A DNA stretch of 64,000 nucleotides from Gammaproteobacteria bacterium (GCA_965221695.1 OZ244905.1:736001-800000), one strand, 5' to 3'. Shown: positions 34,487 to 64,000, numbered from the stretch's first letter. Program-made: numbers and translations. The notes: generated from the sequence alone by a model not told the origin.

Positions 34487-34516
34487 CGGGCATAGGTTAC
34501 ACAGCATATAGCTTGT

Positions 34517-37651: not shown

Positions 37652-37813
37652 GCCACCGCAGTATAAATGAAAACAGGGTGTAAATCTGCCGGACTCCCAA
37701 AGGAGGATGTTGTCTGACGCGGGCGTGACGTCTGCAATACCTGGCTGGCGCCCAGGTTTTCCAACGCAATGCTGACTAAAACCAAAGGCCGAGAGGGTAT
37801 AATTCAACCAGCC

Positions 37814-39016: not shown

Positions 39017-39163
39017 AACTAAGAGTCGCCCTGCGGGCGACACAGTATTTGACTGGACTCCCGCTTCCGCGGGAGTGGTTCTGTGGTAGCATTCACAGGA
39101 GTGCCCCGTCCCATTCCCTTGCAAGTGCCCCCCGTCCCATTCCCGCGCAAGCGGGAATCCAGT
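38986..39163. repeat. Composite REP-like cluster 3 (overlaps the MFS stop)
   Basis: ACCATTCCCGTGAAAACGGGAATCCAG, GTCGCCCTGCGGGCGAC, CTGGACTCCCGCTTCCGCGGGAGTGGT, CCATTCCCGCGCAAGCGGGAATCCAG. Confidence 0.9.
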
Positions 39164-40945: not shown

Positions 40946-40988
40946 TGTTCAGTCTCTCCGGGCAAACAACGGCTATGACTCGATTTAA

Positions 40989-41141
40989 GGAAACTCTGGA
41001 CAAGTCCATCCTGGACTTGTCAGAGTACGGAAAACAAAAATGCGATTTTTGTTTTCCTCACAATATCAATGCCTTACAGTCATTGATATTGACGATACAT
41101 CCTTGTATCGTAGGAACCTCTGAGACTTAATCAGAGGTTCT
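40989..41141. mobile_element. 153-bp non-autonomous IS5-type MITE with five hairpins
   Basis: Ends GGAAACTCTG.../...CAGAGGTTCT, flanked by TTAA and ATAA; five consecutive stems. Confidence 0.75.
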
Positions 41142-41235
41142 ATAAATTGCCCTCCTGACATCCTGACATTGCAAGATTTTAATATCAATGATAGCCTGTC
41201 GTTGGAAAATAAGATAGTTAAAGAACCTCTGTTGA

Positions 41236-41266
41236 GGAACCTCCAAGATTTAGTCTCAGGGGTTCC
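41236..41266. mobile_element. Degenerate solo MITE
   Basis: GGAACCTCCAAGATTTAGTCTCAGGGGTTCC. Confidence 0.5.
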
Positions 41267-41347
41267 AACAGTACAGGGATGTGCCGTTTGACAATGGATG
41301 GACTTGTTCAGCGGTTCCTTGAAAAATCATCTTGAGGGGGAATTAAT

Positions 41348-43717: not shown

Positions 43718-44587
43718 TCAGCGGGTCGGCATCAGGCCCATGTCGAATTGCAGGTGGCTGAACGGCACCGGGATGTTGTAGCGGGCAGCCAGGCCGGCAT
43801 CGTCGGATTGTTCATAATGGCCTATCAGCGAACTCTTGGTGGCGAACACCGCGTCTGAGTCCAGATACTCGTCGCCTTCCGAAAATACGTGCGTTGTCAG
43901 CGGCTCGTAACCGTCCGCAGAGACGATGAAATGGATATGGGCCGGGCGCATGCCGTGACGGCTGCTGGTTCGCAACAAATCACCAACCGGTCCGTCAGTG
44001 GGTATGGAATAGGATAGCGGTTTTTCCGTGACAAAAGCGTAATTGCCTTGCTCATCCGTGGTGAAGATGCCGCGCATATTGTTCTCCGGCATGGTTTGAT
44101 CCTGCACATCATACGTACCGTTCGCTGCGGTTTGCCAGATGTCCAGCTTTGCTCCCGCTATGGGATTACCGTCCGGGTCAGTCACCCTGCCCTGTACCAG
44201 CGCAATATCTCCACCATAATGCCGCTTGATGATGCTGGCGCCGTTTTCGTATTCCGGCGCGCCGGGCACGTAAAACGGCCCTAACACTGTGGACTCGGTG
44301 CCCTGGCCGGACTTGGGGTGGTTGATCGCATCAACCAGCATGGATACGCCCAGCACGTCTGACAACAGGATAAATTCCTGGCGCTTATCGTCGCAGATCT
44401 GGCCTGTAGCGGTTAGGAACATGATGGCCTTGAACCATTCCTCTTCCGTCAACTCCACATCCTTGACAAACGCATGGAGGTGTTTGAGCAACGAGGTAAT
44501 GATCTGCCTGAACCTTGGATCTTCTGTCTTGGAACCGTATTCTTCCAACACGATTTCCGTCAGATTATCGATTGTAAAATCACGCAT
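43718..44587 (-). CDS. Intradiol ring-cleavage dioxygenase (hydroxyquinol 1,2-dioxygenase-like)
   Basis: RQEFILLSDVLG.SMLVD, STVLGPF, YDVQ, YSIP.DGPVG, RPAHIHF. Confidence 0.9.
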   Translation of the reverse strand: MRDFTIDNLTEIVLEEYGSKTEDPRFRQIITSLLKHLHAFVKDVELTEEEWFKAIMFLTATGQICDDKRQEFILLSDVLGVSMLVDAINHPKSGQGTESTVLGPFYVPGAPEYENGASIIKRHYGGDIALVQGRVTDPDGNPIAGAKLDIWQTAANGTYDVQDQTMPENNMRGIFTTDEQGNYAFVTEKPLSYSIPTDGPVGDLLRTSSRHGMRPAHIHFIVSADGYEPLTTHVFSEGDEYLDSDAVFATKSSLIGHYEQSDDAGLAARYNIPVPFSHLQFDMGLMPTR

Positions 44588-44607
44588 GATTTCCTCCCCG
44601 TGTAGTA

Positions 44608-44671
44608 TTCACATGGATGGACAGGATATACAGGATGCTGTCATGTCTTGCATCCTGTATATCCATGTTAA
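44608..44671. repeat. 9-nt-periodic IR element, short copy
   Basis: TTCACATGGATGGACAGGATATACAGGATGC...GCATCCTGTATATCCATGTTAA. Confidence 0.8.
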
Positions 44672-44673
44672 TC

Positions 44674-45972
44674 TTAACGCCCTTTTGCGCGCAATGCCTG
44701 CACGGTGAAATCTGTTTCTTTAAATGGTTTTTCCGGCAATATCGCCTTGAACTGCAGGGTCGTGCAGTGCAGCGCCTGGATATCGATCATGGAGACCGCA
44801 TCGATGATCGGCACGCCCATGCCCCGGTTGGAGGGATGATGCCGGTCCGGGTGGGAGTAGGCGGCGATGGCGACTTTCCACAGGTTGCCAGGCCTGTCGA
44901 AGATGTGGCCATAGACCGGTAACATGGTCTGGGCGTCCAGGTAATAGCGACGCTTGGACAACGGATGTTGTTTCCAGTAAGGCTCGGCCTCCAGGATATA
45001 CGCCTTGCGCACGTGCCAGGTGACATTCGGAAAGCAGTTACCCTTGCCGTGGAAGCCGATGAACCTGAAACCATCGAGCTGTTGCCCCACCTCCTCCAGT
45101 TGCTGCTCGTCATGATGGAAGAACGGCAGCAGTACCCAGGTGATGCCTTTATAGGTCCACTTCTGATCCATGATGCGGCCGTTATAACCTAAAAAGTCCT
45201 CGATCATAATGTCACTGCCGAGGAATGCGTCCGTGGTCTGTCCAGACGCCAGGCGGCGCACACGCCGGTGGCCGGACAGGTACAGCCAGACCTGCTCCGG
45301 CTTGGTATCGTCTTCCAGTCGTTGTACCAGCAGTTGCGTCCCGCGCAGGTCGGGCGGCGCCAGTACTCTCAGGTACAGGCCGTGGTAGATTTCGGACGGA
45401 TTTTTCGGCATCGACGGAATCGGCTCCTGCACATGCCTGTGCATAAACTTCAGCGAACTGGCATAGAAGGACAACTCTCTCTCGATTTTGTCATGCCGTA
45501 TATTCCTGTATTGCCAGTAAAATCCATCCACCTCACCGCTGTCGTAAGAATAGGTATAGCGCAGGTTCCAGGCCAGCTTGTCCCCTGCCCTGGGATCGTC
45601 AAGTTGCGGCTCTCTGGGGAACGGCCGTCCCGCGATGTAATTGTGAATAATCCCCGGCGCATCGCCGAGTTCGGTTTGATCCAGGTAACGCCTCGTTGCG
45701 TCGATATACGCAGCATGCGTGGACATGGATATGACCTCGCCCGTGGTGATGGTCAAAAACTCATCACTGATCAGGTCCACCAGCTTAGGCGCCAGAATAG
45801 GGCGGAATGACTCCACATTTTCTTTTGTGATCACCGTGCCCGGCGCGGGGTTAAGCGAGGCAACATGTGCCAGGTCAAAGGTGAACGACTCCTCGACCAC
45901 ATCTGCCCTGAGCGCGGCGGTACCGGCCAGAAGACCAAGCAACGATACGCAGATAAATCGTCGAGAAGTCAT
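44674..45972 (-). CDS. DUF1329 family periplasmic protein (paralogue 2)
   Basis: Signal peptide, GRPFP, WLYL...RRVRRLASGQ.TDAFLGSD...EDF.GYNG, DRPGNLWK. Confidence 0.88.
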   Translation of the reverse strand: MTSRRFICVSLLGLLAGTAALRADVVEESFTFDLAHVASLNPAPGTVITKENVESFRPILAPKLVDLISDEFLTITTGEVISMSTHAAYIDATRRYLDQTELGDAPGIIHNYIAGRPFPREPQLDDPRAGDKLAWNLRYTYSYDSGEVDGFYWQYRNIRHDKIERELSFYASSLKFMHRHVQEPIPSMPKNPSEIYHGLYLRVLAPPDLRGTQLLVQRLEDDTKPEQVWLYLSGHRRVRRLASGQTTDAFLGSDIMIEDFLGYNGRIMDQKWTYKGITWVLLPFFHHDEQQLEEVGQQLDGFRFIGFHGKGNCFPNVTWHVRKAYILEAEPYWKQHPLSKRRYYLDAQTMLPVYGHIFDRPGNLWKVAIAAYSHPDRHHPSNRGMGVPIIDAVSMIDIQALHCTTLQFKAILPEKPFKETDFTVQALRAKGR

Positions 45973-46042
45973 GTTTGTCCGCTAATCATTCTTCCGCAGA
46001 TGATACAGGCTGGCGTAAATGAGTTTTACGGTCTTACACCCG

Positions 46043-47593
46043 CTAATCTGTGGCATCTTCGGGCTTTTTCATAAACAGGTTGACATCATGGGGATTGACC
46101 AGGTCTCCAACCGTCCAGCCGTTGATGTCGTATTCATCCATACACTGCTGGGCAAAGTCCTTGAGTTCCTGCTCCAGGCCCGAGGCCTGCGCCGATATCA
46201 ACGCATCAATGCGGATGTTTTCGTTATTGCCCGAGTAATTGCGTTCATACAGTTCATGGCGGCCACCGAACTCCGTGCCGATGGCATCCCACAACAGGCG
46301 CATGGTCTTGACCCGGTCCTCCGCATCGTGGCCGTAAGAGCCCCGCAGGTATTTATCCAGGTAGACTTTCAGCTCCGGCACGTTGAAATCCGTCGCATGG
46401 GAGTTCAGGTAGATCAGGCCGCTGGCAACCATGTTCTCGATTAATTCCTTGGCGCGGGGATAGGCCATCGTCATCAGCACCCGATATACCTGCCCGGCAT
46501 GGCCGTTCGGCACTTTTGCGCCCTTGAAATCGTCAGGCATGCCGCACATCGCATCCGACAAGGCCCAGAACAGGTGGCGCAACACGATCATTTCACCTAT
46601 CGCCACTTGCACGCCGCGATACCCCTTGGAACCGGTGATCTCCAGGGCCTTCATGAACAGACCGGTAATGAAATCAAATTTTACCGCAAGCCGGGTGCAG
46701 CCGTGAAAGGCAAAGGTATAACCCCAACCGGAAGTACCCAGGAACGTACTGGCCGCCTCCATGTCCTGGTAGATAAAGACGTCTTCCCAGCGCATCAGCG
46801 CATTGTCCAGAACCAGTATCGCATCATTCTCATCCAGGCGGCTGGACAGCGGGTTGTCGAACGGGCTGCCCATCACCTCCGCCGCGTACGCGTAGGACGG
46901 CCGGCAAATCAGCTTCACCCCCGGCGTGTCCATGCTCAACATGCCGGAAATCGCAAAACGCTTGTCCTTGACGGGGATGGGTCCGTACTGTCCAAGGAAA
47001 TTGTAGTGTGTCAGGGCCGACCCGGTCGCCACCACCTTGGCCCCGGAAATGATGATGCCCTCATCCGTTTCCCCGGTACAGTGCATGTAGACATCCTCGA
47101 TCTCTTCATGGGGTTTATGCCGGTCCACCGGGGGATTCACCAGGGCATGGTTCAGGAACGGCACACTTTCCTGGGCGCGCCGGTACCAGTTCAGGGCATT
47201 GCCGGCATAGTCACCGAAATACTCCTGGTTGAATCCCAGGGTCAGCATCAGGCTGGCCTTGTAATCGGGGGTACGGCCCATCCAGCCGTAAGTCATGCGC
47301 GCCCACTGGGCGATGGCCTCGCGCTGGGCGATCACATCTTCGCGGCTCCTGGCGACCTTGAAGTAAGGATGGGTAAAACCGCCGTTGCCGGTATCGGTAT
47401 CGGTACGCAGGTGCGGAAATTGCTCTTCATTATGCAGCGCATCGTAGAGGCGCGCCATCATCCTTGCGGGGTTGCGGAAGGCCGGGTGTTCGGTCACGTC
47501 GCGGACCCGCTCCCCGTAAATCCAGATCTCCCGGTCGTCTTTCAGGTTCTCAAGAAATTCAGCGCCGGTATAGGGGCGAATATCGTTATCCAC
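46043..47593 (-). CDS. FADH2-dependent phenol hydroxylase oxygenase component (HpaB/PheA1/NphA1-like)
   Basis: RPYTGAEFLE.L.D.RE..IYGERV, GWMGRTPDYKA, NHALVNPPVDR, SSRLDENDA, GGRHELYERNY. Confidence 0.93.
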   Translation of the reverse strand: MDNDIRPYTGAEFLENLKDDREIWIYGERVRDVTEHPAFRNPARMMARLYDALHNEEQFPHLRTDTDTGNGGFTHPYFKVARSREDVIAQREAIAQWARMTYGWMGRTPDYKASLMLTLGFNQEYFGDYAGNALNWYRRAQESVPFLNHALVNPPVDRHKPHEEIEDVYMHCTGETDEGIIISGAKVVATGSALTHYNFLGQYGPIPVKDKRFAISGMLSMDTPGVKLICRPSYAYAAEVMGSPFDNPLSSRLDENDAILVLDNALMRWEDVFIYQDMEAASTFLGTSGWGYTFAFHGCTRLAVKFDFITGLFMKALEITGSKGYRGVQVAIGEMIVLRHLFWALSDAMCGMPDDFKGAKVPNGHAGQVYRVLMTMAYPRAKELIENMVASGLIYLNSHATDFNVPELKVYLDKYLRGSYGHDAEDRVKTMRLLWDAIGTEFGGRHELYERNYSGNNENIRIDALISAQASGLEQELKDFAQQCMDEYDINGWTVGDLVNPHDVNLFMKKPEDATD

Positions 47594-47603
47594 TAAATAT
47601 GAC

Positions 47604-47630
47604 CTCTGTGATCTTTGTGTCCTCTGTGGC
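47604..47630. repeat. 9-nt-periodic repeat arm (CTCTGTG family)
   Basis: CTCTGTGATCTTTGTGTCCTCTGTGGC, related to 50589-50615. Confidence 0.6.
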
Positions 47631-49867
47631 TAGCTCACCTTCCGCGCCTTGTACTCCTCCGGACTTTCCGCGGTTTTGTATTTTTCCACTGCGATCTTCC
47701 GATGCAGGATGACCGGTTGTTCCGCGACCGGCGGTGATGCTATCTCCGCAGGGTAACAACCCATGGTTTGCTTAGCCGGGTCCATGTTGGTGCGTTTCGA
47801 GAACTGGCGCCGGTTGGTACGCTCGGCGGGGATAATATTGCCTTCACTGTCGCTGTCGAGGTCCCACCACCACTTCTTCACCGGGTTGATCAAACCGTTG
47901 CCCACCACGTCATCCAGTTTTGCGATCCAGCTTCGGGTAAACGGCAGGTTCATCGCCGCCCACAGGAACGGCCTCTCAGCCAACACCCCCTCAATGTTCC
48001 AGGGGCAGGTCTTCATACAGCGGCCGCACAGCGCGCCGGCGGCGTTGGTAATCCGATAACGCGCGCATTTTTCCACGTCCGGCTTCCACATTTCATAGCC
48101 GTTGAACATGATTTTGTCGCCGTAGGGGATCGCCTGGCACGGGCACTCCCGCGCGCACTTGGTGCATTTCTCACAAAAATCCTGCAAGCCGAAATCGATC
48201 GGTTTATCCGGCAATAACGGCAAATCAGTCGTGATAATACCGGACTTGAAGCGCGGACCCACGTAGGGATTCAACACCAGTTCACCGATGCGGCTCAGTT
48301 CGCCCAGCCCCGCTTCCAGGATGATAGGAATATGCAGAACATCCTGGTCCATCACGCTGTGGCCCCGGGCGGAATACCCCAGGGAGCGGATATGGGCGCC
48401 GACAACACCGCCGATGAGCTGGGCGCGCAAGTAGGCGCGCATGCTTTGTGCGCCACTGATCCAGTCATCCCCGCTGGCGCCTTCCATGGTCTCGTAGCCC
48501 TGGTCCACCAGGATGGCGATTCCGTACTTGTGGTACGGCTTTATCTCCGAACCGTCGGTATCGTGGGAATACCAGGCATAGTCGGGCAGCTCGCAGATGC
48601 CCACCATGTCCGCTCCCATGTAATACAGGGCGGCCTTCACCGCCTCGGCGTTTTTTTTCGGATCATCGGTACCGGGGGCAATAGCATCCGCTTCCTTGCC
48701 ATACTGCAGCGGCACCATTGCACCCAGCGGCGGTATCATCGCATGGCCGTATGGCGACTTGGTGATCATGCGAAAATTGTGCAATTCCTGCTGCGGTTTA
48801 TCACCGAGATCGCCCAGGGCAGCGCGGATAAACATATCGTGACGTTTGGGAACCCGCGGCACGTTCGGCCGGTCAATAAACGTAGTGGTGGTGTCCTGCG
48901 TTTTCAGTTTTTCCATCGGATAAGGACCCAGGCGGAACGGCCTGTTTTTGAACAGCTTGCCCTTGTAGCCCGGTCGCGCCCCGCCCATTCCCAGCCACCA
49001 GCCCGGGCCATGAGACTTCAGCGATTGCATCATCCCGCGTTGCGCCAGCGGTTTATCGGCCGCCAGCTCCATGGTTGTCGAGACCACGGCCATACCGAAT
49101 TGATCCCCAAGGTAGGGGTTGGTGACCTTGCCACCGCCGTTGGCGCCGGTTACCTCTCCCAGGCCGCTGCAAAGCAACAGGTAATCGAGATCGAGGTCGC
49201 TTGCCGATGCGGTGTGCAATGTCGCCTCATATCCCAGAAAACGGATGTAATTCACCATCACCGCCGCCGCTTCGGCCACTCTTAGCGCTGCCCGCTGTGG
49301 CTGGGTACCGACCAGCCAGGTTTCGCTCTCAGCATGAGATTCCGGTTCCCTGGTGTACTCGAACAGTAGGACCAGCGCATAGCCATGACTGAAATCCTTG
49401 TTCGCGTCCTCCATGGAACGCTGCCAGGCTTCCTGGCCTTCCCGGACGGTAAACTCTGCCATCGCATTGGCCGCCGACCCGGCCTGGTATTCTTTTTCCT
49501 GCGCTTGCGCCAGCGACTCATTGATGATGGGTTGTGCCAGTATCGCTTGTTCGGGTATCGCGCAGGTCGCCGCCATACTGACATCGAGGTTGTAACAACC
49601 GGCTTTCAGGTGATTGGCGCGTTCTTGCGGGTCTGACGGAATGGGCGCCTGCTTGGGCGCCGGGTCGCCCAGGCGCATGCGGTCGAACAGGTCGAGGTAT
49701 TCACGGAACGCGCCGGCCATGGATTCCGGATTGCCGGGCGTAACCGCTTCCCGCGTTCGTTGCCCTGCAGCCGGTGAATAGTCGGGTATGGAATTACCGC
49801 GTGCCAGCCGTTCCAGCGGGAATGGACCCATGTGCATGGCACGATGTTTATGGGAAAAGAGTCGCAT
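47630..49867 (-). CDS. rdhA: Catabolic cobalamin-dependent reductive dehalogenase (NpRdhA/BhbA-type, no fused reductase)
   Basis: Duplicated B12 domain, SMRAY, AGLGELSRIG, NPYVGPRFKSG, FCEKCTKCARECP and CGRCMKTCPW 4Fe-4S motifs; no Tat signal. Confidence 0.92.
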   Translation of the reverse strand: MRLFSHKHRAMHMGPFPLERLARGNSIPDYSPAAGQRTREAVTPGNPESMAGAFREYLDLFDRMRLGDPAPKQAPIPSDPQERANHLKAGCYNLDVSMAATCAIPEQAILAQPIINESLAQAQEKEYQAGSAANAMAEFTVREGQEAWQRSMEDANKDFSHGYALVLLFEYTREPESHAESETWLVGTQPQRAALRVAEAAAVMVNYIRFLGYEATLHTASASDLDLDYLLLCSGLGEVTGANGGGKVTNPYLGDQFGMAVVSTTMELAADKPLAQRGMMQSLKSHGPGWWLGMGGARPGYKGKLFKNRPFRLGPYPMEKLKTQDTTTTFIDRPNVPRVPKRHDMFIRAALGDLGDKPQQELHNFRMITKSPYGHAMIPPLGAMVPLQYGKEADAIAPGTDDPKKNAEAVKAALYYMGADMVGICELPDYAWYSHDTDGSEIKPYHKYGIAILVDQGYETMEGASGDDWISGAQSMRAYLRAQLIGGVVGAHIRSLGYSARGHSVMDQDVLHIPIILEAGLGELSRIGELVLNPYVGPRFKSGIITTDLPLLPDKPIDFGLQDFCEKCTKCARECPCQAIPYGDKIMFNGYEMWKPDVEKCARYRITNAAGALCGRCMKTCPWNIEGVLAERPFLWAAMNLPFTRSWIAKLDDVVGNGLINPVKKWWWDLDSDSEGNIIPAERTNRRQFSKRTNMDPAKQTMGCYPAEIASPPVAEQPVILHRKIAVEKYKTAESPEEYKARKVS

Positions 49868-49934
49868 TTCAATCAATCGCCAATGTTATGATTCGATGTT
49901 CGATAACGGGTTTGGATGCTGCCCCTGTTGATCT

Positions 49935-50528
49935 TTATGTTTTTTGCAGTCCGAGTTCGCGCAAGTAGTCATGCACGAAATCAATCCGGTCATTGCCCCA
50001 GAATATCTGGTCGCCTTGCACAAATGTCGGCACGCCGATCACACCGGCTTCCTGCGCCTCCTGCCAGTTGTCCTCCAGGACCTTCTGCCTGGCCGGATCA
50101 TCCAGTGACGCACTGAACTCATCGGGGTCTAGGCCACACTCACGGGCGATGTCCACCAGGGTATCAAGCTGTCCAATATCCTTACCCAGCGCCCATTCGG
50201 TATCCATCACCCGGTTGATATAGTCTCGCAGGCAGCCTTTTTCTTCGGCCAATAGAGAACCAACACCCGCCGGAGTCGGATCAGTGGTAATGGGTGGAGG
50301 GTTGCAAGGGATATTCATCCGTTTTGCCCAGCGGGCAACATCCTGGCGGGTAAGCGGGATTTTGACCTTTGCCCGGTCCGGCGCCGAGCGGCCGTTCCAT
50401 CCTGCCAGCGGCCGCCAAACCAGGTTGACATGGTAGTCATCCACCAGGCTGAACATGGTCTTGCTGGCGAGATAACAATAAGGACTTCGAAAATTGAAGA
50501 AAAACTTTAAATCAACAGACTCCCTCAC
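49935..50528 (-). CDS. 2-hydroxychromene-2-carboxylate isomerase / kappa-GST (NahD-like)
   Basis: FNFRSPYCYL, D.ARWA, GVIGVPTF, FWGNDRI. Confidence 0.85.
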   Translation of the reverse strand: MRESVDLKFFFNFRSPYCYLASKTMFSLVDDYHVNLVWRPLAGWNGRSAPDRAKVKIPLTRQDVARWAKRMNIPCNPPPITTDPTPAGVGSLLAEEKGCLRDYINRVMDTEWALGKDIGQLDTLVDIARECGLDPDEFSASLDDPARQKVLEDNWQEAQEAGVIGVPTFVQGDQIFWGNDRIDFVHDYLRELGLQKT

Positions 50529-50548
50529 CTGTGCTGCTCCTTACGTCT

Positions 50549-50615
50549 GCCAAAGAGGGCACGAATGTCGCAGAGCAATCAAGTCAAACTCTGTGAATTC
50601 TGTACCCTCTGTGGC
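50549..50615. repeat. Degenerate IR element (GCCACAGAG/CTCTGTGGC family)
   Basis: GCCAAAGAGGGCAC...CAGAG / CTCTGTGAATTCTGTACCCTCTGTGGC. Confidence 0.6.
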
Positions 50616-50631
50616 AATAAAATAAGTGATG

Positions 50632-51939
50632 TTACCTGCCGCTCTTGCGCAGGTTTTGCACCGTGAACATCTGCGGCGGGTTCAACGTGGGATCCAACTG
50701 GCCCTTGAACTGGCCGGTGGTGCAGTGTTTTGCCTGCACGTCATACATCATGAAGCAATTATCGATGGCGACGCCGGAACCCTTGTTACCGGGCAAGTGC
50801 CGGTCCGGATAGGCCTGGCAGATGGAAAACGACTTCCACAGGTCGCCCTTGCGGTCGAACTCGGCCTGGCGCGGAATGGTGTATGTCTGCGCATCGATAT
50901 ACATTACGCGCCGGCTCAACGGGTGATTCGGATCCTTCGGCGTCCCGTGCAGCTCATAGACCTTGCGCAGTTCCCAGGTGGTCTTAGGATAACAACCATC
51001 CACGTCAACGAACTGGTAACCATCGGGTTCGGGCGGCATATCGGTGGCCAGTTCCAGCTCGTCATGGTTATGGAACGGCAGAAAACCGTTCTTTGTGCCG
51101 ATATACTCCCAGTTGTAGTCGGATACGCGGTTGTTGTAGCCTTCAAAGTCCTCGATCATGATATCCGTGCCCAGGAATGCATCCGTCGTCTGCCCCGTGG
51201 CCAGACGCCGTACTCGCCGCTGGAAACCCAGGTACAGCCAGGCGTCATCCCGCTTCAGGTCGTTCTTGTAACGATGAATGAGAAGCTGGGTATTGGCGAT
51301 ATCAAACGGCTCCAGCGCGCGCACATAAATTGAGCGGAACAATTGCGCGGGATTGTCTTCAAACTCCGGAACCGGTTCCTGGTTCACCCGATGTTTCCAA
51401 TTCAGGAAATGGAAGCTCCACTTGATAGTGCGTTCGAGCTTTCCTGATTTGGCGTTCCTGAACTTCCAGTAGAACGGCGAGATTGCGGCGTTATCGCCCC
51501 AGTTATAACCGTACTGGTAATTCCAGGCGACTTTCAGTCCAGCCTGGGGGTCATTCACATCCGGTTCAGCAGGAAATGCCCGCCCGGCAACAAAATTATC
51601 CACCAGCCCATCCGCATTCAAGGATGGTTGATTGTTGACCGCTTCCATGGTTGCCTTGATATAGTTCGGGTGTAACTCCAATGATTCCGTTACCTTAGTC
51701 TGCAATGCCGTCTCACCGTTTTTGATATGGTCGTACAACGCCGGATCGAGAATCTCCTTGAACTGCTCCACGTTACCCTGGTCGATGACCATCCCGGGCG
51801 TGTATCCTGGAAACTCCGGTGTCCAGTTTTCATAAGGATAAAACGATTTCCTTACATCTTCTTCGGTAAAATCGGCTGAGACCGCCAGGCTCAGGGCAAC
51901 CAGCGGCATAACAGCGAGATACTTGACATACTTGAACAT
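50632..51939 (-). CDS. DUF1329 family periplasmic protein (paralogue 1)
   Basis: Signal peptide, AWLYLGFQRRVRRLATGQTTDAFLGTD, DRKGDLWK; AGGAAGGAGG RBS. Confidence 0.9.
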   Translation of the reverse strand: MFKYVKYLAVMPLVALSLAVSADFTEEDVRKSFYPYENWTPEFPGYTPGMVIDQGNVEQFKEILDPALYDHIKNGETALQTKVTESLELHPNYIKATMEAVNNQPSLNADGLVDNFVAGRAFPAEPDVNDPQAGLKVAWNYQYGYNWGDNAAISPFYWKFRNAKSGKLERTIKWSFHFLNWKHRVNQEPVPEFEDNPAQLFRSIYVRALEPFDIANTQLLIHRYKNDLKRDDAWLYLGFQRRVRRLATGQTTDAFLGTDIMIEDFEGYNNRVSDYNWEYIGTKNGFLPFHNHDELELATDMPPEPDGYQFVDVDGCYPKTTWELRKVYELHGTPKDPNHPLSRRVMYIDAQTYTIPRQAEFDRKGDLWKSFSICQAYPDRHLPGNKGSGVAIDNCFMMYDVQAKHCTTGQFKGQLDPTLNPPQMFTVQNLRKSGR

Positions 51940-51969
51940 AATAATTAAGCCTCCTTCCTGAAAATAGTG

Positions 51970-54123: not shown

Positions 54124-54167
54124 CGTTTATCCCCCTTCGCTAAGTGAACTTGATTAGTGTAGTTATG

Positions 54168-54183
54168 AAAATATCGATATTTT
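54168..54183. promoter_or_regulatory. Perfect palindrome AAAATATCGATATTTT, putative operator
   Basis: Upstream of DUF1302; the 12-bp core also occurs at 30817-30828. Confidence 0.45.
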
Positions 54184-54287
54184 TTCATTATAGCCTCTTT
54201 ATTCGCCATTACCATGAATATTTTTTGGGCGGGGACAGGACGTGCCTGTCTCCACCTATTGCATAATGATTCCCCAATTCCTCGCTG

Positions 54288-56687: not shown

Positions 56688-57673
56688 GATTTATCTCCCA
56701 CCAGTTCCTGAGCTGAAAAAATTTCCAATACGCCTGCGGGTCCGCTCACGATCAAGCGCTGATCGGGTAACGGCATGATCCCGCGCAGGTACTGGCGGAA
56801 CGGCCGGCCATGATCGAACGGCAACCACCTGTCTCCATCCAAACGGAAAATGCTGCCTTCACCACCGGTGACAAACAACTGGCCGTTGGCTTTTGCCAGC
56901 GTATACAATGTCACCAGGCTGCCGGTAGCTTGTGTCTCCCAGGTCTCTCCGCCATCGTCCGTAGCCAGGACCACGCCGCCCAGGCCGGCGATCCAGCCCC
57001 GGTTCGGATCCTCAAAATACATGCTTTGCGGATAAAACTCGTCCGGCATCGGCGGCATGAATTCCCAGTTGGAGCCGGCATCGGCGGTTTTCAGCAAAGT
57101 GCCGAACTCGCCGGCGATATAGATGTTCTGATCATCGAAAAACTGGATGTCCGTAAAAATAATATCCTCATCCAGGGAGGTTACGTCCCAACTCACGCCG
57201 CCATCCCGGCTGACCGAGATGGTGGAAAAGCTGCCTACCACCCACAGGTTGCCGGCAGGGTCACACTGTATGGCCTGGGGCGCCTCCTCGGTCGCGAGTT
57301 GGCTCCTGTTCCAGCTCTCACCCTGGTCGTTCGACAGCCATACTTCACCTTCAAAGGCCAGCGCGGCAAACAGGCCACCGGCGCAACTGGTAATGTCCAG
57401 GAACGCCGGCCAGGAAGGGATTTGATAGCGTTGCCAGCTCGCGCCATCGTCTTGTGACGACAGGATGACACCACCGGAGCCGACTGCGACGATATTTTGC
57501 TGAAATGCACTGACGGCCTGGAAATTGTCGGTCCTGCGAATCGGGTTTTGCAGGGCTTTCTCGACCTCATCCAGCACCAACGGCGACTCGCAAGCGGATG
57601 CCAACACGCAGGCCACAGCCAACAGCCAGCGGCTTGCAAACCGGGCGCTCTCTTTGATGTAATTATTATTCAT
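56684..57673 (-). CDS. YCF48-like BNR-repeat beta-propeller lipoprotein
   Basis: LASAC lipobox; repeated S.D.G.SW / T.DGG.TW motifs. Confidence 0.88.
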   Translation of the reverse strand: MNNNYIKESARFASRWLLAVACVLASACESPLVLDEVEKALQNPIRRTDNFQAVSAFQQNIVAVGSGGVILSSQDDGASWQRYQIPSWPAFLDITSCAGGLFAALAFEGEVWLSNDQGESWNRSQLATEEAPQAIQCDPAGNLWVVGSFSTISVSRDGGVSWDVTSLDEDIIFTDIQFFDDQNIYIAGEFGTLLKTADAGSNWEFMPPMPDEFYPQSMYFEDPNRGWIAGLGGVVLATDDGGETWETQATGSLVTLYTLAKANGQLFVTGGEGSIFRLDGDRWLPFDHGRPFRQYLRGIMPLPDQRLIVSGPAGVLEIFSAQELVGDKS

Positions 57674-57757
57674 GTTTCCCCTAAATTAACCCTCATAAAC
57701 AGCGCGCTGCGCATCCTGGCCGCATGTAATTGTTGACATAATCCAAATCACGCCCCC

Positions 57758-57862
57758 GTACCACTCGTGCGAAACACCACCTTACCACTCCCGCAAAACA
57801 CCAACTTACCACTCCCGCGAAAGCGGGAGTCCAGTCAATTACTGTGTCGCCCGCAGGGCGAC
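57758..57862. repeat. Composite REP-like cluster 4, with 24-bp-period tandem half-REPs
   Basis: TACCACTC... three times, then GCGAAAGCGGGAGTCCAG and GTCGCCCGCAGGGCGAC. Confidence 0.85.
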
Positions 57863-57877
57863 CCGTTATTATAGTTT

Positions 57878-58666
57878 TCAAACCATCCGAAAACTGACCT
57901 TCCCCAAGTCCTGGAAGCGCACATTGATCGTATCGCCTTTGTCCAGAGCAACCGCCGCCGTGATTCCCCCGGTCATTATGAACGTCCCTGCGGGTATGGT
58001 CTCACCGCGCGCAGCCAGCATGTTCGCCAGCATCGCCACGCTCAGGGCAGGATGCCCCAACACTGCGGCGCCGGCGCCGGTCTCAACCACTTCTCCGTTT
58101 TTCTCCATCACCACCCCAAGGGCCGGCAAGTCCAGGGAGTCCGCGCCACGCAAGACACTGCCGACGACAAAGCCTGCGGCGGAAGTATTATCGGCAATGA
58201 CGCTCTTCAGGTCAAAACGAAAATTTTCATAGCGGGAATCGATGATCTCCAACGCCGCCGTAACAAAATCAACGGCTTGCAATACCTGGCCGATATGGCA
58301 TCCGGGACCGGCCAGTTCCGCTTTTGTCACGACAGCCACCTCCGCTTCCACGCGCGGGTGGATAAACGCTGAGCAGTCAATCTCAGCGCCATCGGCGTAA
58401 CCGCCGGTAGCAGGCAGGAAACCGTATACCGGATCGGACACCCCCATCTGCCGCATCTTGGCCTGGGAGGTCAGGCCCATTTTCAGGCCGGCGATGCGGA
58501 TGCCGCGTTCTTCTTTGCGCCGGCGGATCTCGTACTGGATGGCGTAGGCGTCCTCCCAGTCCAGTTCCGGGTAGTCATCGGTAATCTTCGTTACCGCTTG
58601 CCGGTTGAGTTCGGCATTCTCCAGCCGCTCGGCCAGTTGCCTGATGGTTTTTTGATCCAGCGTCAT
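57878..58666 (-). CDS. dmpH: 4-oxalocrotonate decarboxylase
   Basis: [39 protein letters not shown]. Confidence 0.9.
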
Positions 58667-59703
58667 TGCACTGCCTTTATTTCACGCCGCGCCCGCGCCA
58701 TGTTCAGCGCAACGTCTTCGATCATGTCTTCCTGGCCGCCGATGGTCTTCATCTTCCCCAGCTCGACCAGGATGTCGCCCGAAGGCAGCTTGTATTTTTC
58801 ACCGACGCGCTTCGCGTGCAGCAGGAACGAAGAGTAGACACCGGCATAACCCATGATCAACGAGTCACGGTCGACCCGGATCAACTGGTCCATTATCGGC
58901 ACCACCACATCTTCCGCAACGTTCATCAATTTGAATACATCCACGCCGGTTTTGACGCCCATGCGGTCCAGCACCGCGTTGAACACCTCAAGCGGCGTGT
59001 TGCCGGCGCCGGCGCCCAGCCCCGCGGCGGAACCGTCAATCCGGTCGGCGCCCGCTTCGACTGCGGCCAGTGAATTGGCAATGCCCATTGCCAGGTTATG
59101 GTGCCCGTGAAAGCCAATCTCGGTATCGGCTTGCAGGCCGGCGCGCAATGCCCCGATGCGGGCCGTGACATCATCCGGCAGCATATAGCCGGCAGAATCG
59201 GTGCAGTAAATGCAGTTGGCGCCATAGGATTCCATCAATTTGCCCTGTTCAAGCAACTGTTCCGGTTCCACCATATGCGCCATCATCAGGAAACCGACGG
59301 TATCCAGGCCCAGTTTTCGAGCTGAACTGATATGTTGTTCCGAGACATCCGCCTCGGTGCAATGGGTCGCGACGCGGATGGTATGGACTCCACAATCCCG
59401 CGCCATGTTCAAATGATCCACGGTGCCGATACCCGGCAACAGCAAGGCCGACACATTTGCCTGCTTCATACGCGGCGTGACCGCTTGCAGGTACTCTTCA
59501 TCGGAGCTGGCAGGAAAGCCGTAATTGATGGAGGCGCCACCCAGGCCATCGCCATGGGTCACTTCGATAAGGTGGACGCCTGCGTCATCCAGCGCGGAAG
59601 CGACATCGATCATCTGCTCAGTCGTGATCTGGTGGCGCTTGGCATGCATCCCGTCGCGCAGGCACATATCATGCAGTTTTACTGTTTTTCCGTTTAGATT
59701 CAT
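58663..59703 (-). CDS. dmpG: 4-hydroxy-2-oxovalerate aldolase
   Basis: [43 protein letters not shown]. Confidence 0.97.
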
Positions 59704-59746
59704 GGTGTTGTTGTATCAGTTTCGACTTGATCGCTGTTTTGTGGGG

Positions 59747-60655
59747 CTAAGCGTTGGCCGCATCCAGGCGCAATGCGCCGTTGATGATTTCTTCCGCGAA
59801 CATCTCACCGGTTCGCAGCGCCGCGGCGGTCATGATGTCCAGGTTGCCCGCGTAATCCGGCAGGTAATCTCCCAGACCCTTCACCTCCATGAAGATGGAG
59901 ACGCGCCGGCCGTCGAATACCGGGCCGTTTTTCAATTGGTAGCCGGGCACGTACTTCTGCACTTCCCGGATCATGTCGTGGACGGATTTGCGGATAGCAT
60001 CCTGGTCGGGATCGTCCTGCGTCAGGCAATGGATGGTGTCGCGCATGATCAGCGGGGGTTCAGCAGGGTTGAGGATGATGATGGCCTTGCCGCGTCCGGC
60101 GCCGCCTACCCGTTCCAGCCCGTTGGCCGTGGTGCGGGTGAACTCATCGATATTCTTGCGGGTGCCCGGGCCGGCGGATTTCGACGCGACAGTCGCCACG
60201 ATCTCTGCGTATTCCACCGGTTGTACCCTGCTTACCGCGGCTACCATCGGGATTGTCGCCTGGCCACCGCAACTGACCATGTTCACGTTGGTCTCCTGTT
60301 TGCCGACATGTTCCTGCAGGTTTACGGGCGGCACACAATACGGGCCGATGGCAGCCGGCGTCAGGTCGATGACCAGCACACCCCGTTGTTCCAGCTTCCG
60401 GGAGTTCTCCGGGTGGACCGAGGCAGAGGTCGCATCGAAGGCGATCCTGATACCGTCTTTTTCAATATGTTCGAGCAACGCATCCACGCCTTCGTGGGTG
60501 GTCTTCAGGCCGCTCGCGCCGGCCTTTGCCAGGCCGTCCGAGTTCGGGTCGATTCCCACCATCCACACCGGGTTGATGCGATCACTGCGCAGCGCCTTTA
60601 TCATCAGGTCCGTGCCGATATTGCCGGAACCGACCAAAGCAGCATTAACTTTCAT
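59747..60655 (-). CDS. dmpF: Acylating acetaldehyde dehydrogenase
   Basis: [41 protein letters not shown]. Confidence 0.97.
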
Positions 60656-60681
60656 ATTCAGTTTACCCCTGTCCTCTATCC

Positions 60682-61473
60682 TCAGTTGAACCGCACCGAT
60701 GCGTTGCCGATTCCGCCGACAGCCAGGGTCATTACATCTCCGGGCACGACGGGGTGCAGCGGCACCAGGGAACCGGACAGGATCACTTCACCCGCTTCCA
60801 GCTTGATACCGAACTCGCCCAGGGTGTTCGCCAACCAGGCCACACAGTTTACTGGTGAACCCAGCGCCGCGGCGCCGGCGCCGGTGGCGATAACTTCACC
60901 ATTTTTGGTATGTACCATGCCGCAGGTCACCAGGTCCACGGCGCGCGGGCTCACGGCCCGATCTCCGAGCAGGAACGCCCCGCAGGACGCGTTATCGGCA
61001 ATGGTGTCTTGTATCTTTATCTTCCAATCCTGAATACGGGAATCCACGATTTCAAAACAGGGCATCACACATTCCGTGGCGCGCAGCACCTCGGCATTGG
61101 TGATACCCGGACCATCCAGGTCGTGTTTCAGGATGAACGCGATCTCACCCTCTGCCCTGGGCTGGATCATTTCCGCGCTGATGGGTACTTCGTCGCCGTC
61201 GTTGTAGACCATGCGGTCGGTCAGGTAACCGAAGTCCGGCTGGTTGACCTGCAGCATATTCATAACCGCCTTGCTAGTAACACCAATCTTCTTGCCGATG
61301 ATTTTCTCGCCGTCATCCAGGCGCCGTTGCAGTAATTGCAGCGAAATGCGGTAGGAGTCCTCAATGGTGATATCCGGTTCCTGGTCTGTCAGTGGCTCGA
61401 TGGTCTTGCGCGCGCGCAGGCAATCGTACAAGGTATTGCCATAAGACAGTATTTTTTCTTCAGTCAGGCTCAT
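60682..61473 (-). CDS. dmpE: 2-oxopent-4-enoate hydratase
   Basis: [38 protein letters not shown]. Confidence 0.93.
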
Positions 61474-61502
61474 TATTTCTGTCACAGTGTCGGATTGAAT
61501 TC

Positions 61503-62993
61503 CTACAGTTTCACACACACGTTGCGCATCTCGGTGTAGAACTCAAGTGAGTGTACACCACCTTCGCGGCCTATGCCCGATTGTTTGGAGCCGCCGAACG
61601 GAGTCCTGAGATCGCGCAGGAACCAGCAGTTGACCCAGGTGATGCCGACATCAATGGCGGCGGCGACCCGGTGCGCGCGGGATGCATTCCCGGTCCAGAT
61701 CGCCGTTGCCAGGCCGTAGCGCGTGTCATTGGCCATCGCAATCACTTCGGCCTCATCGTCAAAAGGCTGTACATGGCAGCAAGGACCAAAGATCTCCTCC
61801 CGGATGACCGGCGATGATTCAGGCAGGCCCGTCCAGATGGTCGGTTCCACCCAGAAGCCGCCGGCCAGATCGTCGTGCACTTGCGGAATACCGCCGCCGG
61901 TTACGACCTGCGCGCCCTCTTCCCTGGCCTTTTCATAGTAGGACAGCACTTTTTCCCGCTGCTGCCGGCTAATCATCGGCCCCAGAGTGGTGGTTGCCAG
62001 TTCCGGCTTGCCGGTTGCCAGGTTTTCGGCGCCCAGTCTGAGCCGGTCCACGAATTCATCGAATACCGGGCGCTCCACGTAAACCCGTTCCGTTCCCAGG
62101 CAGACCTGGCCGCAGTTGGCGAATACCGAACGCATGGCCCCTTCCAGGGCCTTGTCCATATCGCAGTCGGCAAACACCACGCCCGCGTTTTTGCCGCCCA
62201 TTTCAAAGGAGACATCGCGCAGCCCTACGGCTGCGGCTTTCATGATTTGCGAACCGGTGGTTGTCTCACCGGTAAACGTGATCGCGTCCACGCCCTGGTG
62301 CGTGGTCAGGTACTCGCCGGCAGATTCCGGCCCGAAACCATGCACGACATTGTATACGCCAGCGGGAATACCCACCGCATTCATCACCTCACCCAACAGG
62401 GTCGCGGTCGCCGGAGTCTCTTCGGACGGCTTGACCACGACCGCATTACCACAGGCCAGCGCCGGACCGACCTTCCAGGTCATCAGTAACAGCGGCAGGT
62501 TCCAGGGACAGATCACGCCGATGACCCCCTTGGGCACGCGCAGCGCATAATTCAATGCGCCGGCGCCGTCCGGCGTGTCCATCATGAAGGATTCCGCCGG
62601 CACATTCTTGATCACATCGGCAAATATCTTGAAATTGGCCGCGCCCCGGGGTATATCCACATGCCGCGCGAGCGACCAGGGCTTGCCGGTATCAAGACAC
62701 TCCGCTTCGACAAAATCATCGAACCTGGCGTTGATGCCATCGGCCAGCTCATACAGTAAAGCCACGCGTTGCTCTACGGTCAGTGAACCCCAAGGGCCTT
62801 CGAGAGCGGCCCGCGCCGCTTCGACTGCCGCATCGACTTCATCACGACCCGCTTCATGGACCTGCGCATAGGCCTCCCCCGTCACCGGGTTCAGCGTGTC
62901 AAACATTCTGCCGCCGGCAGATCCGACAAACTCGCCGCCGATAAAATGGCAGAACGGCGACCCGGATACAACCTGTTTTACTTGAGCATGCAT
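61503..62993 (-). CDS. dmpC: 2-hydroxymuconic semialdehyde dehydrogenase
   Basis: DIPRGAANF, CPWNLPLLLMTWK, GQVCLG.ER, WFLRDLRTPFGG. Confidence 0.95.
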   Translation of the reverse strand: MHAQVKQVVSGSPFCHFIGGEFVGSAGGRMFDTLNPVTGEAYAQVHEAGRDEVDAAVEAARAALEGPWGSLTVEQRVALLYELADGINARFDDFVEAECLDTGKPWSLARHVDIPRGAANFKIFADVIKNVPAESFMMDTPDGAGALNYALRVPKGVIGVICPWNLPLLLMTWKVGPALACGNAVVVKPSEETPATATLLGEVMNAVGIPAGVYNVVHGFGPESAGEYLTTHQGVDAITFTGETTTGSQIMKAAAVGLRDVSFEMGGKNAGVVFADCDMDKALEGAMRSVFANCGQVCLGTERVYVERPVFDEFVDRLRLGAENLATGKPELATTTLGPMISRQQREKVLSYYEKAREEGAQVVTGGGIPQVHDDLAGGFWVEPTIWTGLPESSPVIREEIFGPCCHVQPFDDEAEVIAMANDTRYGLATAIWTGNASRAHRVAAAIDVGITWVNCWFLRDLRTPFGGSKQSGIGREGGVHSLEFYTEMRNVCVKL

Positions 62994-63056
62994 TTTTTTC
63001 TGACTCCTATTACACCCCAATATTATTCCCGCTTAAGCGGAAAGCCAGCTAACAAA

Positions 63057-63188
63057 GTATCGCCTGTCAGGCGATACGCTATCATACTGGACTCCCGCTT
63101 ACGTGGGAGTAGTACGAGCATCGCTCCTACTCCAGTACCATTCCCGCGAAAGCGGGAATCCAGTGAAACAAACCGTCGCTTCAGCGAC
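63057..63188. repeat. Composite REP-like cluster 5
   Basis: GTATCGCC-GGCGATAC, CTGGACTCCCGCTTACGTGGGAGT, ACCATTCCCGCGAAAGCGGGAATCCAG. Confidence 0.85.
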
Positions 63189-63194
63189 ACTATA

Positions 63195-63623
63195 TTATTC
63201 CGGGGCCAAATACCCCAGCGCATATTCGGCTATTTCCCCATCCTGTTGTTCCGAAGCGCCGGAAACGCCTATCGCGCCGATACGGCGCCCGCCAATCTCA
63301 ATCGGCGCCCCACCACCACAAACCATCAACCGGTCAGCATTGGGGAGACCGATTCTGCACGCCGGCGACAGGGAATCCAATACTTCTCCCCATTTCGATG
63401 TCGGCATGCCGAAACTCATAGCCGTGTAAGCCTTGTTGATCGCCAGGTCAACGGAATGAAACGCCGAACCCGGCATGCGCAAAAACGCGGCAAGATGCCC
63501 GCCGCTGTCCACTACTGCGACATTGACTTTCACGCCTAACTCCTCCGCCCGCGTTACCGCAGCCTGAACCAGTGCGTGAGCCGCTTCCCAGTGGATGCTG
63601 CCCTGATCTACCACCACTTTCAT
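63195..63623 (-). CDS. GlcG/HbpS heme-binding family protein (NahX/CmpX-like)
   Basis: VAVVDSGG, A.NKAYTA, GGG.PI, IGAIGVSG..EQQD. Confidence 0.9.
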   Translation of the reverse strand: MKVVVDQGSIHWEAAHALVQAAVTRAEELGVKVNVAVVDSGGHLAAFLRMPGSAFHSVDLAINKAYTAMSFGMPTSKWGEVLDSLSPACRIGLPNADRLMVCGGGAPIEIGGRRIGAIGVSGASEQQDGEIAEYALGYLAPE

Positions 63624-64000
63624 CTGTTCAGATGCGCTTGTATCTTGCGCCAGGGGGCCTGCCCCTTGTGCTTGAGTTCAGCCATTTTTTCCGCAGAAAA
63701 ATCAGCCGCGACCCCAACCTGGTAAGACGGCCGGTCAACGCAACGCGCATACCAGTCAGCGACCCGTTTGCGCGACTGGTACCAGTCTGCCCAGCCGAAT
63801 TGGAACAGGGTTTGAAAATACGGGGACATGGCCGCGTCCGCCAGCGAGAACCGATCGCCCGCAAGCCAATCCTGGGTTTCCAGCGTGCGTTCCATGTCGG
63901 CAATGGTCTTCTCGTAGGTCGCCACTGCGTCGACGATATCGGGCGCATCATAGCCCATCTTCAGCAGCCGCCTCTGCCGCTCTCGCCGGGGTTTCTCGAC
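63620..64000 (-). CDS. Glutathione S-transferase, C-terminal part (runs off the window edge)
   Basis: WLAGDRFSLAD, V.DWY.R...RPS. Confidence 0.82.
   Translation of the reverse strand, partial: VEKPRRERQRRLLKMGYDAPDIVDAVATYEKTIADMERTLETQDWLAGDRFSLADAAMSPYFQTLFQFGWADWYQSRKRVADWYARCVDRPSYQVGVAADFSAEKMAELKHKGQAPWRKIQAHLNR

Follow-up and report, generated by a model that had tools for sequence, protein, structure and literature searches.

A putative gene block for aerobic catabolism of halogenated phenolics around an NpRdhA-type reductive dehalogenase in a gammaproteobacterium

What is a cobalamin-dependent reductive dehalogenase (RdhA) doing in a run of ring-cleavage, hydroxylation and transport genes? 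The question is raised by a 64,000-nucleotide stretch, here called the window (G000:C1:736001-800000), of the genome of an uncultured, marine-type gammaproteobacterium; the genome is assembled as a single contig of 3.54 Mb and is 96.85% complete. From position 43718 to the window end, 16 open reading frames (ORFs) are all encoded on the minus strand, and neighbours overlap or stand no more than 204 bp apart. A sequence-only reading had described 20 kb of co-directional genes here, and every gene that it named was recovered in the ORF listing and by Pfam. Gene families were assigned with Pfam, equivalogs were called by NCBIfam cutoffs, and structures were sought among all PDB sequences. Homology and synteny make it probable that this block holds catabolic genes for halogenated, most likely ortho-brominated, phenolics, and aerobic use is suggested because oxygenases sit in the same gene run.

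The reductive dehalogenase and its active site

The rdhA gene (47630..49867, minus strand) encodes a protein of 745 aa that scores 209.4 bits on the reductive dehalogenase model TIGR02486 (RDH; cutoff 160.35), while in Pfam it gives only sub-threshold Fer4 matches (26.6 and 23.9, where the cutoffs are 30 and 27). Three PDB entries of NpRdhA (6zxu, 6zy0 and 4ras) match it near full length (E ~1e-176, 592 bits), and roughly half of the aligned residues are identical by eye. NpRdhA, from Nitratireductor pacificus pht-3B, is an unfused ('truncated') catabolic enzyme that shares with the window protein a duplicated N-terminal domain and two [4Fe-4S] motifs, as well as the absence of a twin-arginine (Tat) leader, an RdhB partner and a fused reductase. 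In the window protein, residues 81-278 repeat residues 404-560 (25% identity, E 9e-18), the N-terminal copy being devoid of the catalytic Tyr and Lys. Both Fe-S motifs, CEKCTKCARECP and C..CGRCMKTCP, are present and align with NpRdhA. The start is likely the ATG at 49867 (MRLFSH..., like the NpRdhA start) and not the TTG at 49876. No twin-arginine motif was found in the N-terminus (MRLFSHKHRAMHMGPFPLERL), and the flanking gaps of 36 bp and ~60 bp leave no room for rdhB beside rdhA. No reductase is fused to the protein, which ends where NpRdhA ends and has no Fer2 or NAD-binding match in Pfam. The sequence-only reading had listed the duplication, the two 4Fe-4S motifs, the three absences and the SMRAY and RFKS motifs, and all were found as it stated.

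In the alignment, the SMRAY (Tyr) and PRFKS (Lys) motifs correspond to Y426 and K488 of NpRdhA, and the K488Q mutant entry 6zy0 fixes the Lys column. Substrate-binding and catalytic residues of NpRdhA, as given in passages of one report, are F291, S422, M423, Y426, K488 and R552 (PMC10463259). All six are kept in the window protein (6/6 in NpRdhA numbering; manual alignment count, 6zxu numbering +27). The same passages describe turnover of 3,5-dibromo-4-hydroxybenzoate and 3-bromo-4-hydroxyphenylacetate by a related enzyme, JtRdhA (PMC10463259). Because the active site is kept as in NpRdhA and JtRdhA, it points to ortho-halogenated phenols as the probable substrates.

Three other identities were rejected. 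The protein does not group with QueG, since it reaches 27.1 bits on TIGR00276 (cutoff 200) and 16 bits against PDB entries of QueG. Respiratory RdhAs of the PceA type carry a Tat leader, have an RdhB partner and are single-domain proteins of ~460-500 aa. Besides missing both the leader and rdhB, the window protein resembles PceA only over residues 515-670, in the C-terminal core (97 bits). Nor does it belong to the self-sufficient BhbA/JtRdhA subtype, as its 745 aa include no C-terminal NAD(P)H reductase (Fer2/FMN) domain, although fused RdhA-reductase relatives exist at 61-63% identity (P0047, P0075, P0095). It is thus predicted to be a cytoplasmic catabolic reductive dehalogenase of the NpRdhA type, the assignment first made in the sequence-only reading. 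The family is large, with 4266 proteins at E <=1e-50, of which few have been assayed, and the homolog might catalyse some cobalamin-dependent reduction other than dehalogenation; this is highly improbable given six conserved substrate-binding and catalytic residues out of six and a negligible similarity to QueG.

The closest parallel in logic comes from Comamonas sp. 7D-2, whose bhb route passes through 4-hydroxybenzoate and protocatechuate. Its enzyme BhbA is, in the sections of the report consulted, an oxygen-tolerant RdhA placed in an aerobic pathway that takes brominated phenolics to ring cleavage for carbon (PMC10463259). BhbA and JtRdhA have the fused NAD(P)H reductase domain that is missing here. 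The partners also differ, as the window block combines rdhA with an HpaB-family hydroxylase, a hydroxyquinol-type dioxygenase, dmpCEFGH and a quartet of DUF1302, DUF1329, BNR and RND proteins.

Linkage of rdhA with catabolic genes in relatives

Eighty loci encoding RdhA relatives, taken from species-representative genomes, were compared. Eleven genes (dmpG-dmpH-YCF48-RND-DUF1302-DUF1329-DSBA-RdhA-HpaB-DUF1329-dioxygenase) keep the same order in 14 of them, and a further locus on a short contig (L020) shows the last five. A long RdhA (E <=1e-100) is encoded in 42 of 126 genomes of the family and, within the genus, in 21 of 22 other genomes. The window type (>=75% identity) occurs in 18 of these 22, plus one copy cut at a contig end. 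In G057, a genome of the same genus, a lone ORF of 181 aa (C1:2841276-2841767) matches the last 164 residues of an RdhA of the window type at 85% identity and is probably the remnant of a lost rdhA gene.

Six relatives were extended around rdhA (G053, G039, G046, G047, G125 and G035). The full block from the glutathione S-transferase (GST) gene to the DSBA-fold gene lies upstream of rdhA in all except G035, and one of the five, G125, belongs to another genus. In G035 the same genes are rearranged yet adjacent, with phenol hydroxylase, ferredoxin and catechol 2,3-dioxygenase (C23O) genes alongside and a DmpR-type activator after rdhA. Similar associations recur elsewhere. The DSBA-like gene adjoins rdhA in many loci, distant ones included (L027, L031, L033, L034, L084); the quartet does so, with GSTs, in L022 and L067; and DmpR and phenol hydroxylase genes do so in the distant gammaproteobacterial loci L029 and L030. 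In L035 and L038, rdhA is part of an operon for phenol hydroxylase, LigB-type dioxygenase, RidA, C23O and aldehyde dehydrogenase, to which L038 adds YCF48 and RND genes and L035 a weak YCF48 match. The linkage of rdhA with dmp and DUF1302/1329 genes, proposed from the window, is therefore kept across the genus and survives rearrangement in other genera. Because it is both recurrent and rearrangement-proof, rdhA, the quartet and the meta-cleavage genes would serve one substrate class.

Within the L035 and L038 operons, rdhA stands between the multicomponent phenol hydroxylase genes and a LigB-type subunit pair with RidA, and the C23O and aldehyde dehydrogenase genes follow. This pair with RidA resembles the layout of 2-aminophenol 1,6-dioxygenase with its deaminase.

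The genes downstream of rdhA are less constant. HpaB and the dioxygenase come after rdhA in two of the six extended relatives, and the second DUF1329 paralog stands directly behind rdhA in L039 and L122/G125, where HpaB is absent. In G039 (L108, G039:C1:2352001-2366000), of the same genus, HpaB and the hydroxyquinol dioxygenase are replaced by genes for a TetR regulator, an FAD monooxygenase, a PcpA-like dioxygenase, a maleylacetate reductase, a TonB receptor, a GCV_T protein, a CoA-transferase and the DUF1329 paralog. The PcpA-like protein is a homolog of 2,6-dichlorohydroquinone dioxygenase (4huz, 280 bits), and the maleylacetate reductase scores ~300 bits. Orthologs of three of the replacement genes, at 82-88% identity, are found in the window genome 1.6 Mb away. 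HpaB and the dioxygenase are accordingly a swappable accessory module. Both downstream modules lead to maleylacetate, and the swap, which brings in an FAD monooxygenase, a PcpA-like dioxygenase and a maleylacetate reductase, suggests a part for intermediates of the quinol type alongside plain phenol.

In a FastTree tree of 144 RdhA rows, which excludes rows shorter than 600 aa, seven duplicate loci and L172, and in which L176 sits on an untrustworthy long branch, the window RdhA falls in a clade of 18 rows (support 100) within a gammaproteobacterial clade of 34 rows (support 97). This larger clade holds nearly all contexts in which rdhA is joined by the quartet or by phenol genes. Outside it lie the second RdhA paralog of the genome and two N. 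pacificus proteins, which are 45% and 48% identical to the window RdhA. The two (L141, L161) are paralogs other than NpRdhA, L141 scoring 575 bits to 4ras and L161 differing from 4ras at its N-terminus; the separation in the tree thus concerns these paralogs, NpRdhA itself not being a row. Among cultured relatives, Pseudomaricurvus alkylphenolicus (P0072) has an RdhA homolog that is 62% identical, at a locus outside the 80 compared.

Neighbouring enzymes, envelope proteins and a proposed route

The gene after rdhA (46043..47593, minus strand) encodes the oxygenase component of an HpaB-family hydroxylase, predicted to be FADH2-dependent, with HpaB_N and HpaB domains (PF11794, 274 bits; PF03241, 199 bits). 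Members of the Escherichia coli HpaB group hydroxylate ortho to the phenolic OH, whereas the TcpA/HadA/TftD group is para-hydroxylating and dehalogenating. The window protein scores 629 bits against its best PDB match, 4oo2, which carries the title 'Chlorophenol-4-monooxygenase', ~590 bits against E. coli HpaB and ~87-98 bits against TcpA, HadA and TftD. These scores agree with the earlier proposal of an ortho-hydroxylase, and a protein of the E. coli type is predicted.

The last gene of the run (43718..44587, minus strand) has the Dioxygenase_N and Dioxygenase_C domains of an intradiol dioxygenase. Its product scores 288 bits against PnpC (3n9t), 261 against 6-chlorohydroxyquinol 1,2-dioxygenase (8r2x) and 239 against 1tmx. 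Catechol 1,2-dioxygenases in the PDB score at most 155 bits, and the protein stays under the cutoffs of the catechol and chlorocatechol equivalogs in NCBIfam. By its closest characterised enzymes it would be a hydroxyquinol 1,2-dioxygenase. The sequence-only reading was right that an intradiol enzyme is encoded here; the predicted product, maleylacetate, would not enter the dmp route.

Comparable sets are known from the tcp, pcp and pnp pathways, in which a phenol monooxygenase acts with a (chloro)hydroxyquinol 1,2-dioxygenase or PcpA-type dioxygenase and a maleylacetate reductase. Halogen removal in these pathways is oxidative, hydrolytic or glutathione-dependent. The window dioxygenase is nearest to PnpC and the 6-chlorohydroxyquinol enzyme, and G039 has the PcpA-like dioxygenase and maleylacetate reductase. 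Unlike these pathways, the window block has a cobalamin RdhA, and its HpaB is not of the TcpA/HadA/TftD type.

At the other end of the run, five consecutive genes on the minus strand exceed the NCBIfam cutoffs for lower meta-cleavage enzymes: dmpC, 2-hydroxymuconic semialdehyde dehydrogenase (61503..63020; TIGR03216, 861.8 bits against 693; Aldedh in Pfam); dmpE, 2-oxopent-4-enoate hydratase (60682..61518; TIGR03220, 428.6 against 408.8); dmpF, acetylating acetaldehyde dehydrogenase (59747..60655; TIGR03215, 468 against 282); dmpG, 4-hydroxy-2-oxovalerate aldolase (58663..59703; TIGR03217, 551 against 286); and dmpH, 2-oxo-3-hexenedioate (4-oxalocrotonate) decarboxylase (57878..58666; TIGR03218, 420 against 350.55). 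The dmpE and dmpH products have an FAA_hydrolase-type fold. The dmp operon for phenol meta-cleavage has the order dmpKLMNOPQBCDEFGHI. Here it is split. No extradiol dioxygenase (dmpB) was found in the block; two C23O genes score above cutoff in the genome, at C1:197156 and C1:419954. One of them directly follows a dmpKLMNOP-type multicomponent phenol hydroxylase (C1:189-198 kb), ~590 kb from the block. The lower pathway named in the sequence-only reading is thus present for dmpC, E, F, G and H, and a linked extradiol dioxygenase and the tautomerase were not found. A 62-aa ORF in the 204-bp gap after dmpH was considered as dmpI and rejected, being repeat-like and no tautomerase. The two enzymes on either side of the tautomerase step, DmpC and DmpH, are both equivalogs. 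An unrecognised isomerase may act there, for which the GST, the DSBA-like protein and the GlcG protein are candidates by position only.

The DSBA-fold protein (49935..50528, minus strand; PF01323, 115 bits) is of the 2-hydroxychromene-2-carboxylate isomerase (kappa-GST-like) kind and has no signal peptide. It matches NahD (2imd) weakly, at 63.8 bits, and a bicyclic, naphthalene-type substrate, which the sequence-only reading had drawn from this likeness, finds no support beyond those 64 bits. The GST gene opens the run. Its 3' part occupies 63620..64000 (minus strand) and the gene extends 408 bp past the window end; the full protein of 262 aa (L009:620-1408) has GST_N and GST_C domains and matches LigF best in the PDB, at 88 bits. 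Next to it lies a gene for a GlcG/HbpS-like (DUF336) protein (63195..63623, minus strand; PF03928, 134.7 bits).

Between dmpH and the DSBA-like gene, the four quartet families stand side by side (50632-57673, all minus strand). They are a YCF48/BNR beta-propeller protein with a lipoprotein-like leader (56684..57673; PF14870), an RND/MMPL (HAE3-like) inner-membrane transporter (54288..56687; MMPL in Pfam; TIGR00921, 127.8 bits, under cutoff), a DUF1302 protein (51970..54123; PF06980, 109 bits) and a LolA-like DUF1329 protein (50632..51939; PF07044, 227 bits). A second DUF1329 paralog lies between HpaB and the dioxygenase (44674..45972, minus strand; PF07044, 195 bits). Reading of the N-termini gives leaders of the signal or lipoprotein type to DUF1302, both DUF1329 proteins and BNR, and none to RdhA, HpaB, the dioxygenase, GST or the DSBA-like protein.

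The same four families have been described, in the portions of the literature consulted, as a co-fit unit in Shewanella, Kangiella and Pseudomonas with pleiotropic phenotypes, for which export of an envelope component was proposed (bioRxiv 10.1101/072470). DUF1329 and DUF1302 genes were also noted in phenanthrene, p-cresol, steroid and monoterpene clusters (bioRxiv 10.1101/072470; PMC6394551), and excerpts of another report propose an esterase activity for the quartet (10.1101/2020.07.04.188060). In the window, the quartet has a meta-cleavage lower pathway on one side and a reductive dehalogenase on the other, and a further DUF1329 paralog is present.

A possible route can be drawn from these parts. 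A hydrophobic halophenol may cross the envelope with the help of the exported DUF1302, DUF1329 and BNR proteins and the RND pump. Cytoplasmic RdhA, like NpRdhA, would then take off halogen at the position ortho to the phenolic OH, and a ferredoxin or reductase with a gene outside the block would supply the electrons. HpaB, served by the single, unlinked flavin reductase of the genome, may ortho-hydroxylate the phenol or hydroquinone that results, after which the intradiol dioxygenase would open a hydroxyquinol-type product to maleylacetate. An unlinked maleylacetate reductase and CoA-transferase could finish this branch; the two genes lie together with one for a PcpA-like dioxygenase near C1:2.385 Mb, 1.6 Mb off. 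Plain phenol would instead be taken by the unlinked phenol hydroxylase and C23O, and then by the block's dmpCEFGH to pyruvate and acetyl-CoA. Quinol or ring-fission intermediates are the probable substrates of GST and the DSBA-like protein, which would act on them as glutathione-dependent isomerases or dehalogenases.

Weighing the catabolic assignment

A number of observations count against a catabolic pathway for halophenols assembled in this way. HpaB scores 671 bits on the 4-hydroxyphenylacetate equivalog TIGR02310, under the cutoff of 885, and its substrate is not fixed by it. No flavin reductase (HpaC) was found adjacent to hpaB or elsewhere in the block, the genome's only Flavin_Reduct match being ~850 kb off (G000:C1:1633449). 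The C23O, phenol hydroxylase and maleylacetate reductase genes are hundreds of kb away. A genome-wide search for the 4-oxalocrotonate tautomerase (PF01361, dmpI) gave no match in the 96.85%-complete genome, which leaves a formal gap in the dehydrogenative meta branch. No gene for an electron donor to RdhA was found in the block, and CbiC (PF02570) and CobS (PF02654) were not found in the genome. HpaB and the dioxygenase are missing in G039, G047/L026, G125/L122 and L039 and are not core parts. Hairpins followed by T runs lie in the GlcG-dmpC gap. Finally, the published proposals for the quartet, in the parts of those sources consulted, are export or esterase activity and not uptake; the role of importer given to it in the sequence-only reading is unproven.

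Some of these points fit a different view, in which separate units merely lie side by side: a small halophenol module made up of rdhA, perhaps joined by hpaB and the dioxygenase; dmpCEFGH as the genome's only general meta-cleavage lower pathway, for the distant phenol hydroxylase and C23O; and the quartet as a system for envelope export or solvent tolerance that has nothing to do with substrate supply. The extradiol dioxygenase and phenol hydroxylase are indeed ~590 kb away, the sub-blocks are separated by gaps of 164-204 bp and terminator-like hairpins, the dmp route has no entry point for maleylacetate formed by the intradiol enzyme, and an export role has been proposed and pleiotropic phenotypes reported for the quartet (bioRxiv 10.1101/072470). 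This view is nonetheless unlikely, because the three units stay with rdhA across the genus and are adjacent after rearrangement in G125, G035, L038, L067 and L022, which would be unexpected for unrelated neighbours.

No RNA sequencing run was found among the runs carrying the sequence; three runs of DNA or unknown type, from three studies, contained at least half of the sampled words. Promoter-like sites are as frequent as chance predicts (12 found, 12.6 expected). Terminator-like hairpins exceed chance (31 against 18.6 expected), and only two of them lie in a minus-strand intergenic gap, that between GlcG and dmpC. These two matches arise because a dispersed hairpin repeat occupies the gap. 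The repeat (63025-63196) contains short G+C-rich hairpins, has further copies near window positions 20989-21208, 34385-34489 and 38986-39163 and 71 matches in the genome at 68-97% identity, and looks like a REP-type element.

Cobalamin is probably scavenged, because CbiC and CobS were not found and the genome's sole cobalamin riboswitch (G000:C1:2702046-2702266) stands in front of a BtuB-like receptor gene (TIGR01779, 525 bits against a cutoff of 600). An Rfam search of the window found no family at gathering score, and hence no riboswitch in or beside the block. The TonB receptors flanking the block were considered as B12 importers and rejected, with BtuB scores far under the cutoff.

For the electron donor, relatives provide leads. 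Passages on NpRdhA describe its gene as clustered with a ferredoxin reductase and two ferredoxins, and report that reconstitution with the cognate ferredoxins failed (PMC10463259). None of these genes is present in the window block. In L022 (6959-9936), the genes just upstream of rdhA, in the same orientation, encode 2-oxoacid:ferredoxin oxidoreductase subunits, and in L027 (8287-9966) a gene for a thiamine diphosphate (TPP) enzyme takes that place. Together with the fused RdhAs, these upstream genes are leads to the electron donor of unfused catabolic RdhAs.

The genome encodes further RdhA-type proteins. A second long paralog (G000:C1:870114-872315; L102:9114-11315, minus strand), ~70 kb past the window end, is 50% identical to the window RdhA, scores 191 bits on TIGR02486 and has paaA-B-C-D-E, paaX and an AMP-dependent ligase gene directly downstream of its gene. 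Its type is more widespread in the family than the window type. A nitrilase-family gene, a flavin amine oxidase gene and a sodium:solute symporter gene are also found near it. Six short RDH-like ORFs (317-363 aa; loci L096, L097, L099/L101, L100, L120) score 106-127 bits on TIGR02486 (cutoff 160) and 47-68 bits on QueG (cutoff 200). One of them lies near the only Flavin_Reduct gene of the genome and an HsaA-like oxygenase gene.

Such abundance could also suit a block that mainly detoxifies halogenated phenols or quinols from the environment, and does not support growth on them, with RdhA, GST and the DSBA-like protein disarming them and the RND quartet pumping them or their products out. The block is flanked by two proteins of the glutathione type, efflux is what RND proteins are best known for, two long and six short RDH-like proteins are encoded in the genome, and the only cofactor route found is the BtuB-like receptor behind the single cobalamin riboswitch. 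Tight and conserved linkage to a lower catabolic pathway and to ring-cleavage enzymes fits carbon use better, and detoxification as the main role is quite improbable. Catabolism of halogenated phenolics therefore remains the favoured function of the block.

Other genes adjoin the run at both edges. Beyond GST, just outside the window, lie a divergent GntR/FCD regulator gene and a TonB receptor gene. Beyond the dioxygenase come two genes of uncertain membership. A convergent one on the plus strand (41348..43690) encodes a TonB-dependent receptor with Plug and TonB_dep_Rec_b-barrel domains, which among the 80 loci has an 84% copy in L042 and a 48% match in L010. It is followed on the minus strand by a gene for an Amidohydrolase_3 protein with a lipoprotein-like leader (39230..40945; PF07969, 306 bits), present among these loci in L010 only. 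The receptor has no counterpart at the same position in G053 and G046, where MFS and GMC genes come directly after the dioxygenase; the receptor and amidohydrolase (39230-43690) therefore look like an insertion here. Further downstream in the window, at 30957-36070 and 37769-39016, are genes for a VanA-like Rieske oxygenase, a sulfatase, a GMC oxidoreductase and an MFS transporter.

What is new is the arrangement, since the enzyme families and aerobic catabolic RdhA clusters were already known. Full-text literature searches, which included passages of PMC7313196 and PMC10947273 and did not extend to subscription-only papers and supplements, found no published account of RdhA, dmp genes and the quartet together, in keeping with the earlier impression that the system is undescribed. 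Oxygen-tolerant reductive dehalogenases are of interest for the cleanup of brominated and iodinated aromatics, and few have been assayed. The block sets an unfused RdhA in a conserved and evolutionarily mobile context of transport, hydroxylation and two ring-cleavage routes, and this gene context yields concrete substrate panels. It also links the quartet of DUF1302, DUF1329, BNR and RND proteins with hydrophobic substrates of a defined class. The lineage has many dehalogenase genes for which it probably has to scavenge B12, a dependence of interest for halogen cycling in the sea and for the cross-feeding of cofactors.

A broader and distinctly tentative picture is that of a genus of aerobic Gammaproteobacteria that do not make cobalamin and live partly on natural organobromine phenolics, with a battery of cytoplasmic B12 dehalogenases that in this genome comprises two long RdhAs and six short RDH-like proteins. 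The quartet would be their halophenol uptake machine, and neighbours of rdhA in relatives (2-oxoacid:ferredoxin oxidoreductase, PDR-type reductases and fused forms) would point to the electron donor. If true, this would provide the first concrete physiological role for the quartet, whose members are widespread proteins of 'unknown function', and those neighbours would indicate the long-sought physiological donor of unfused catabolic RdhAs.

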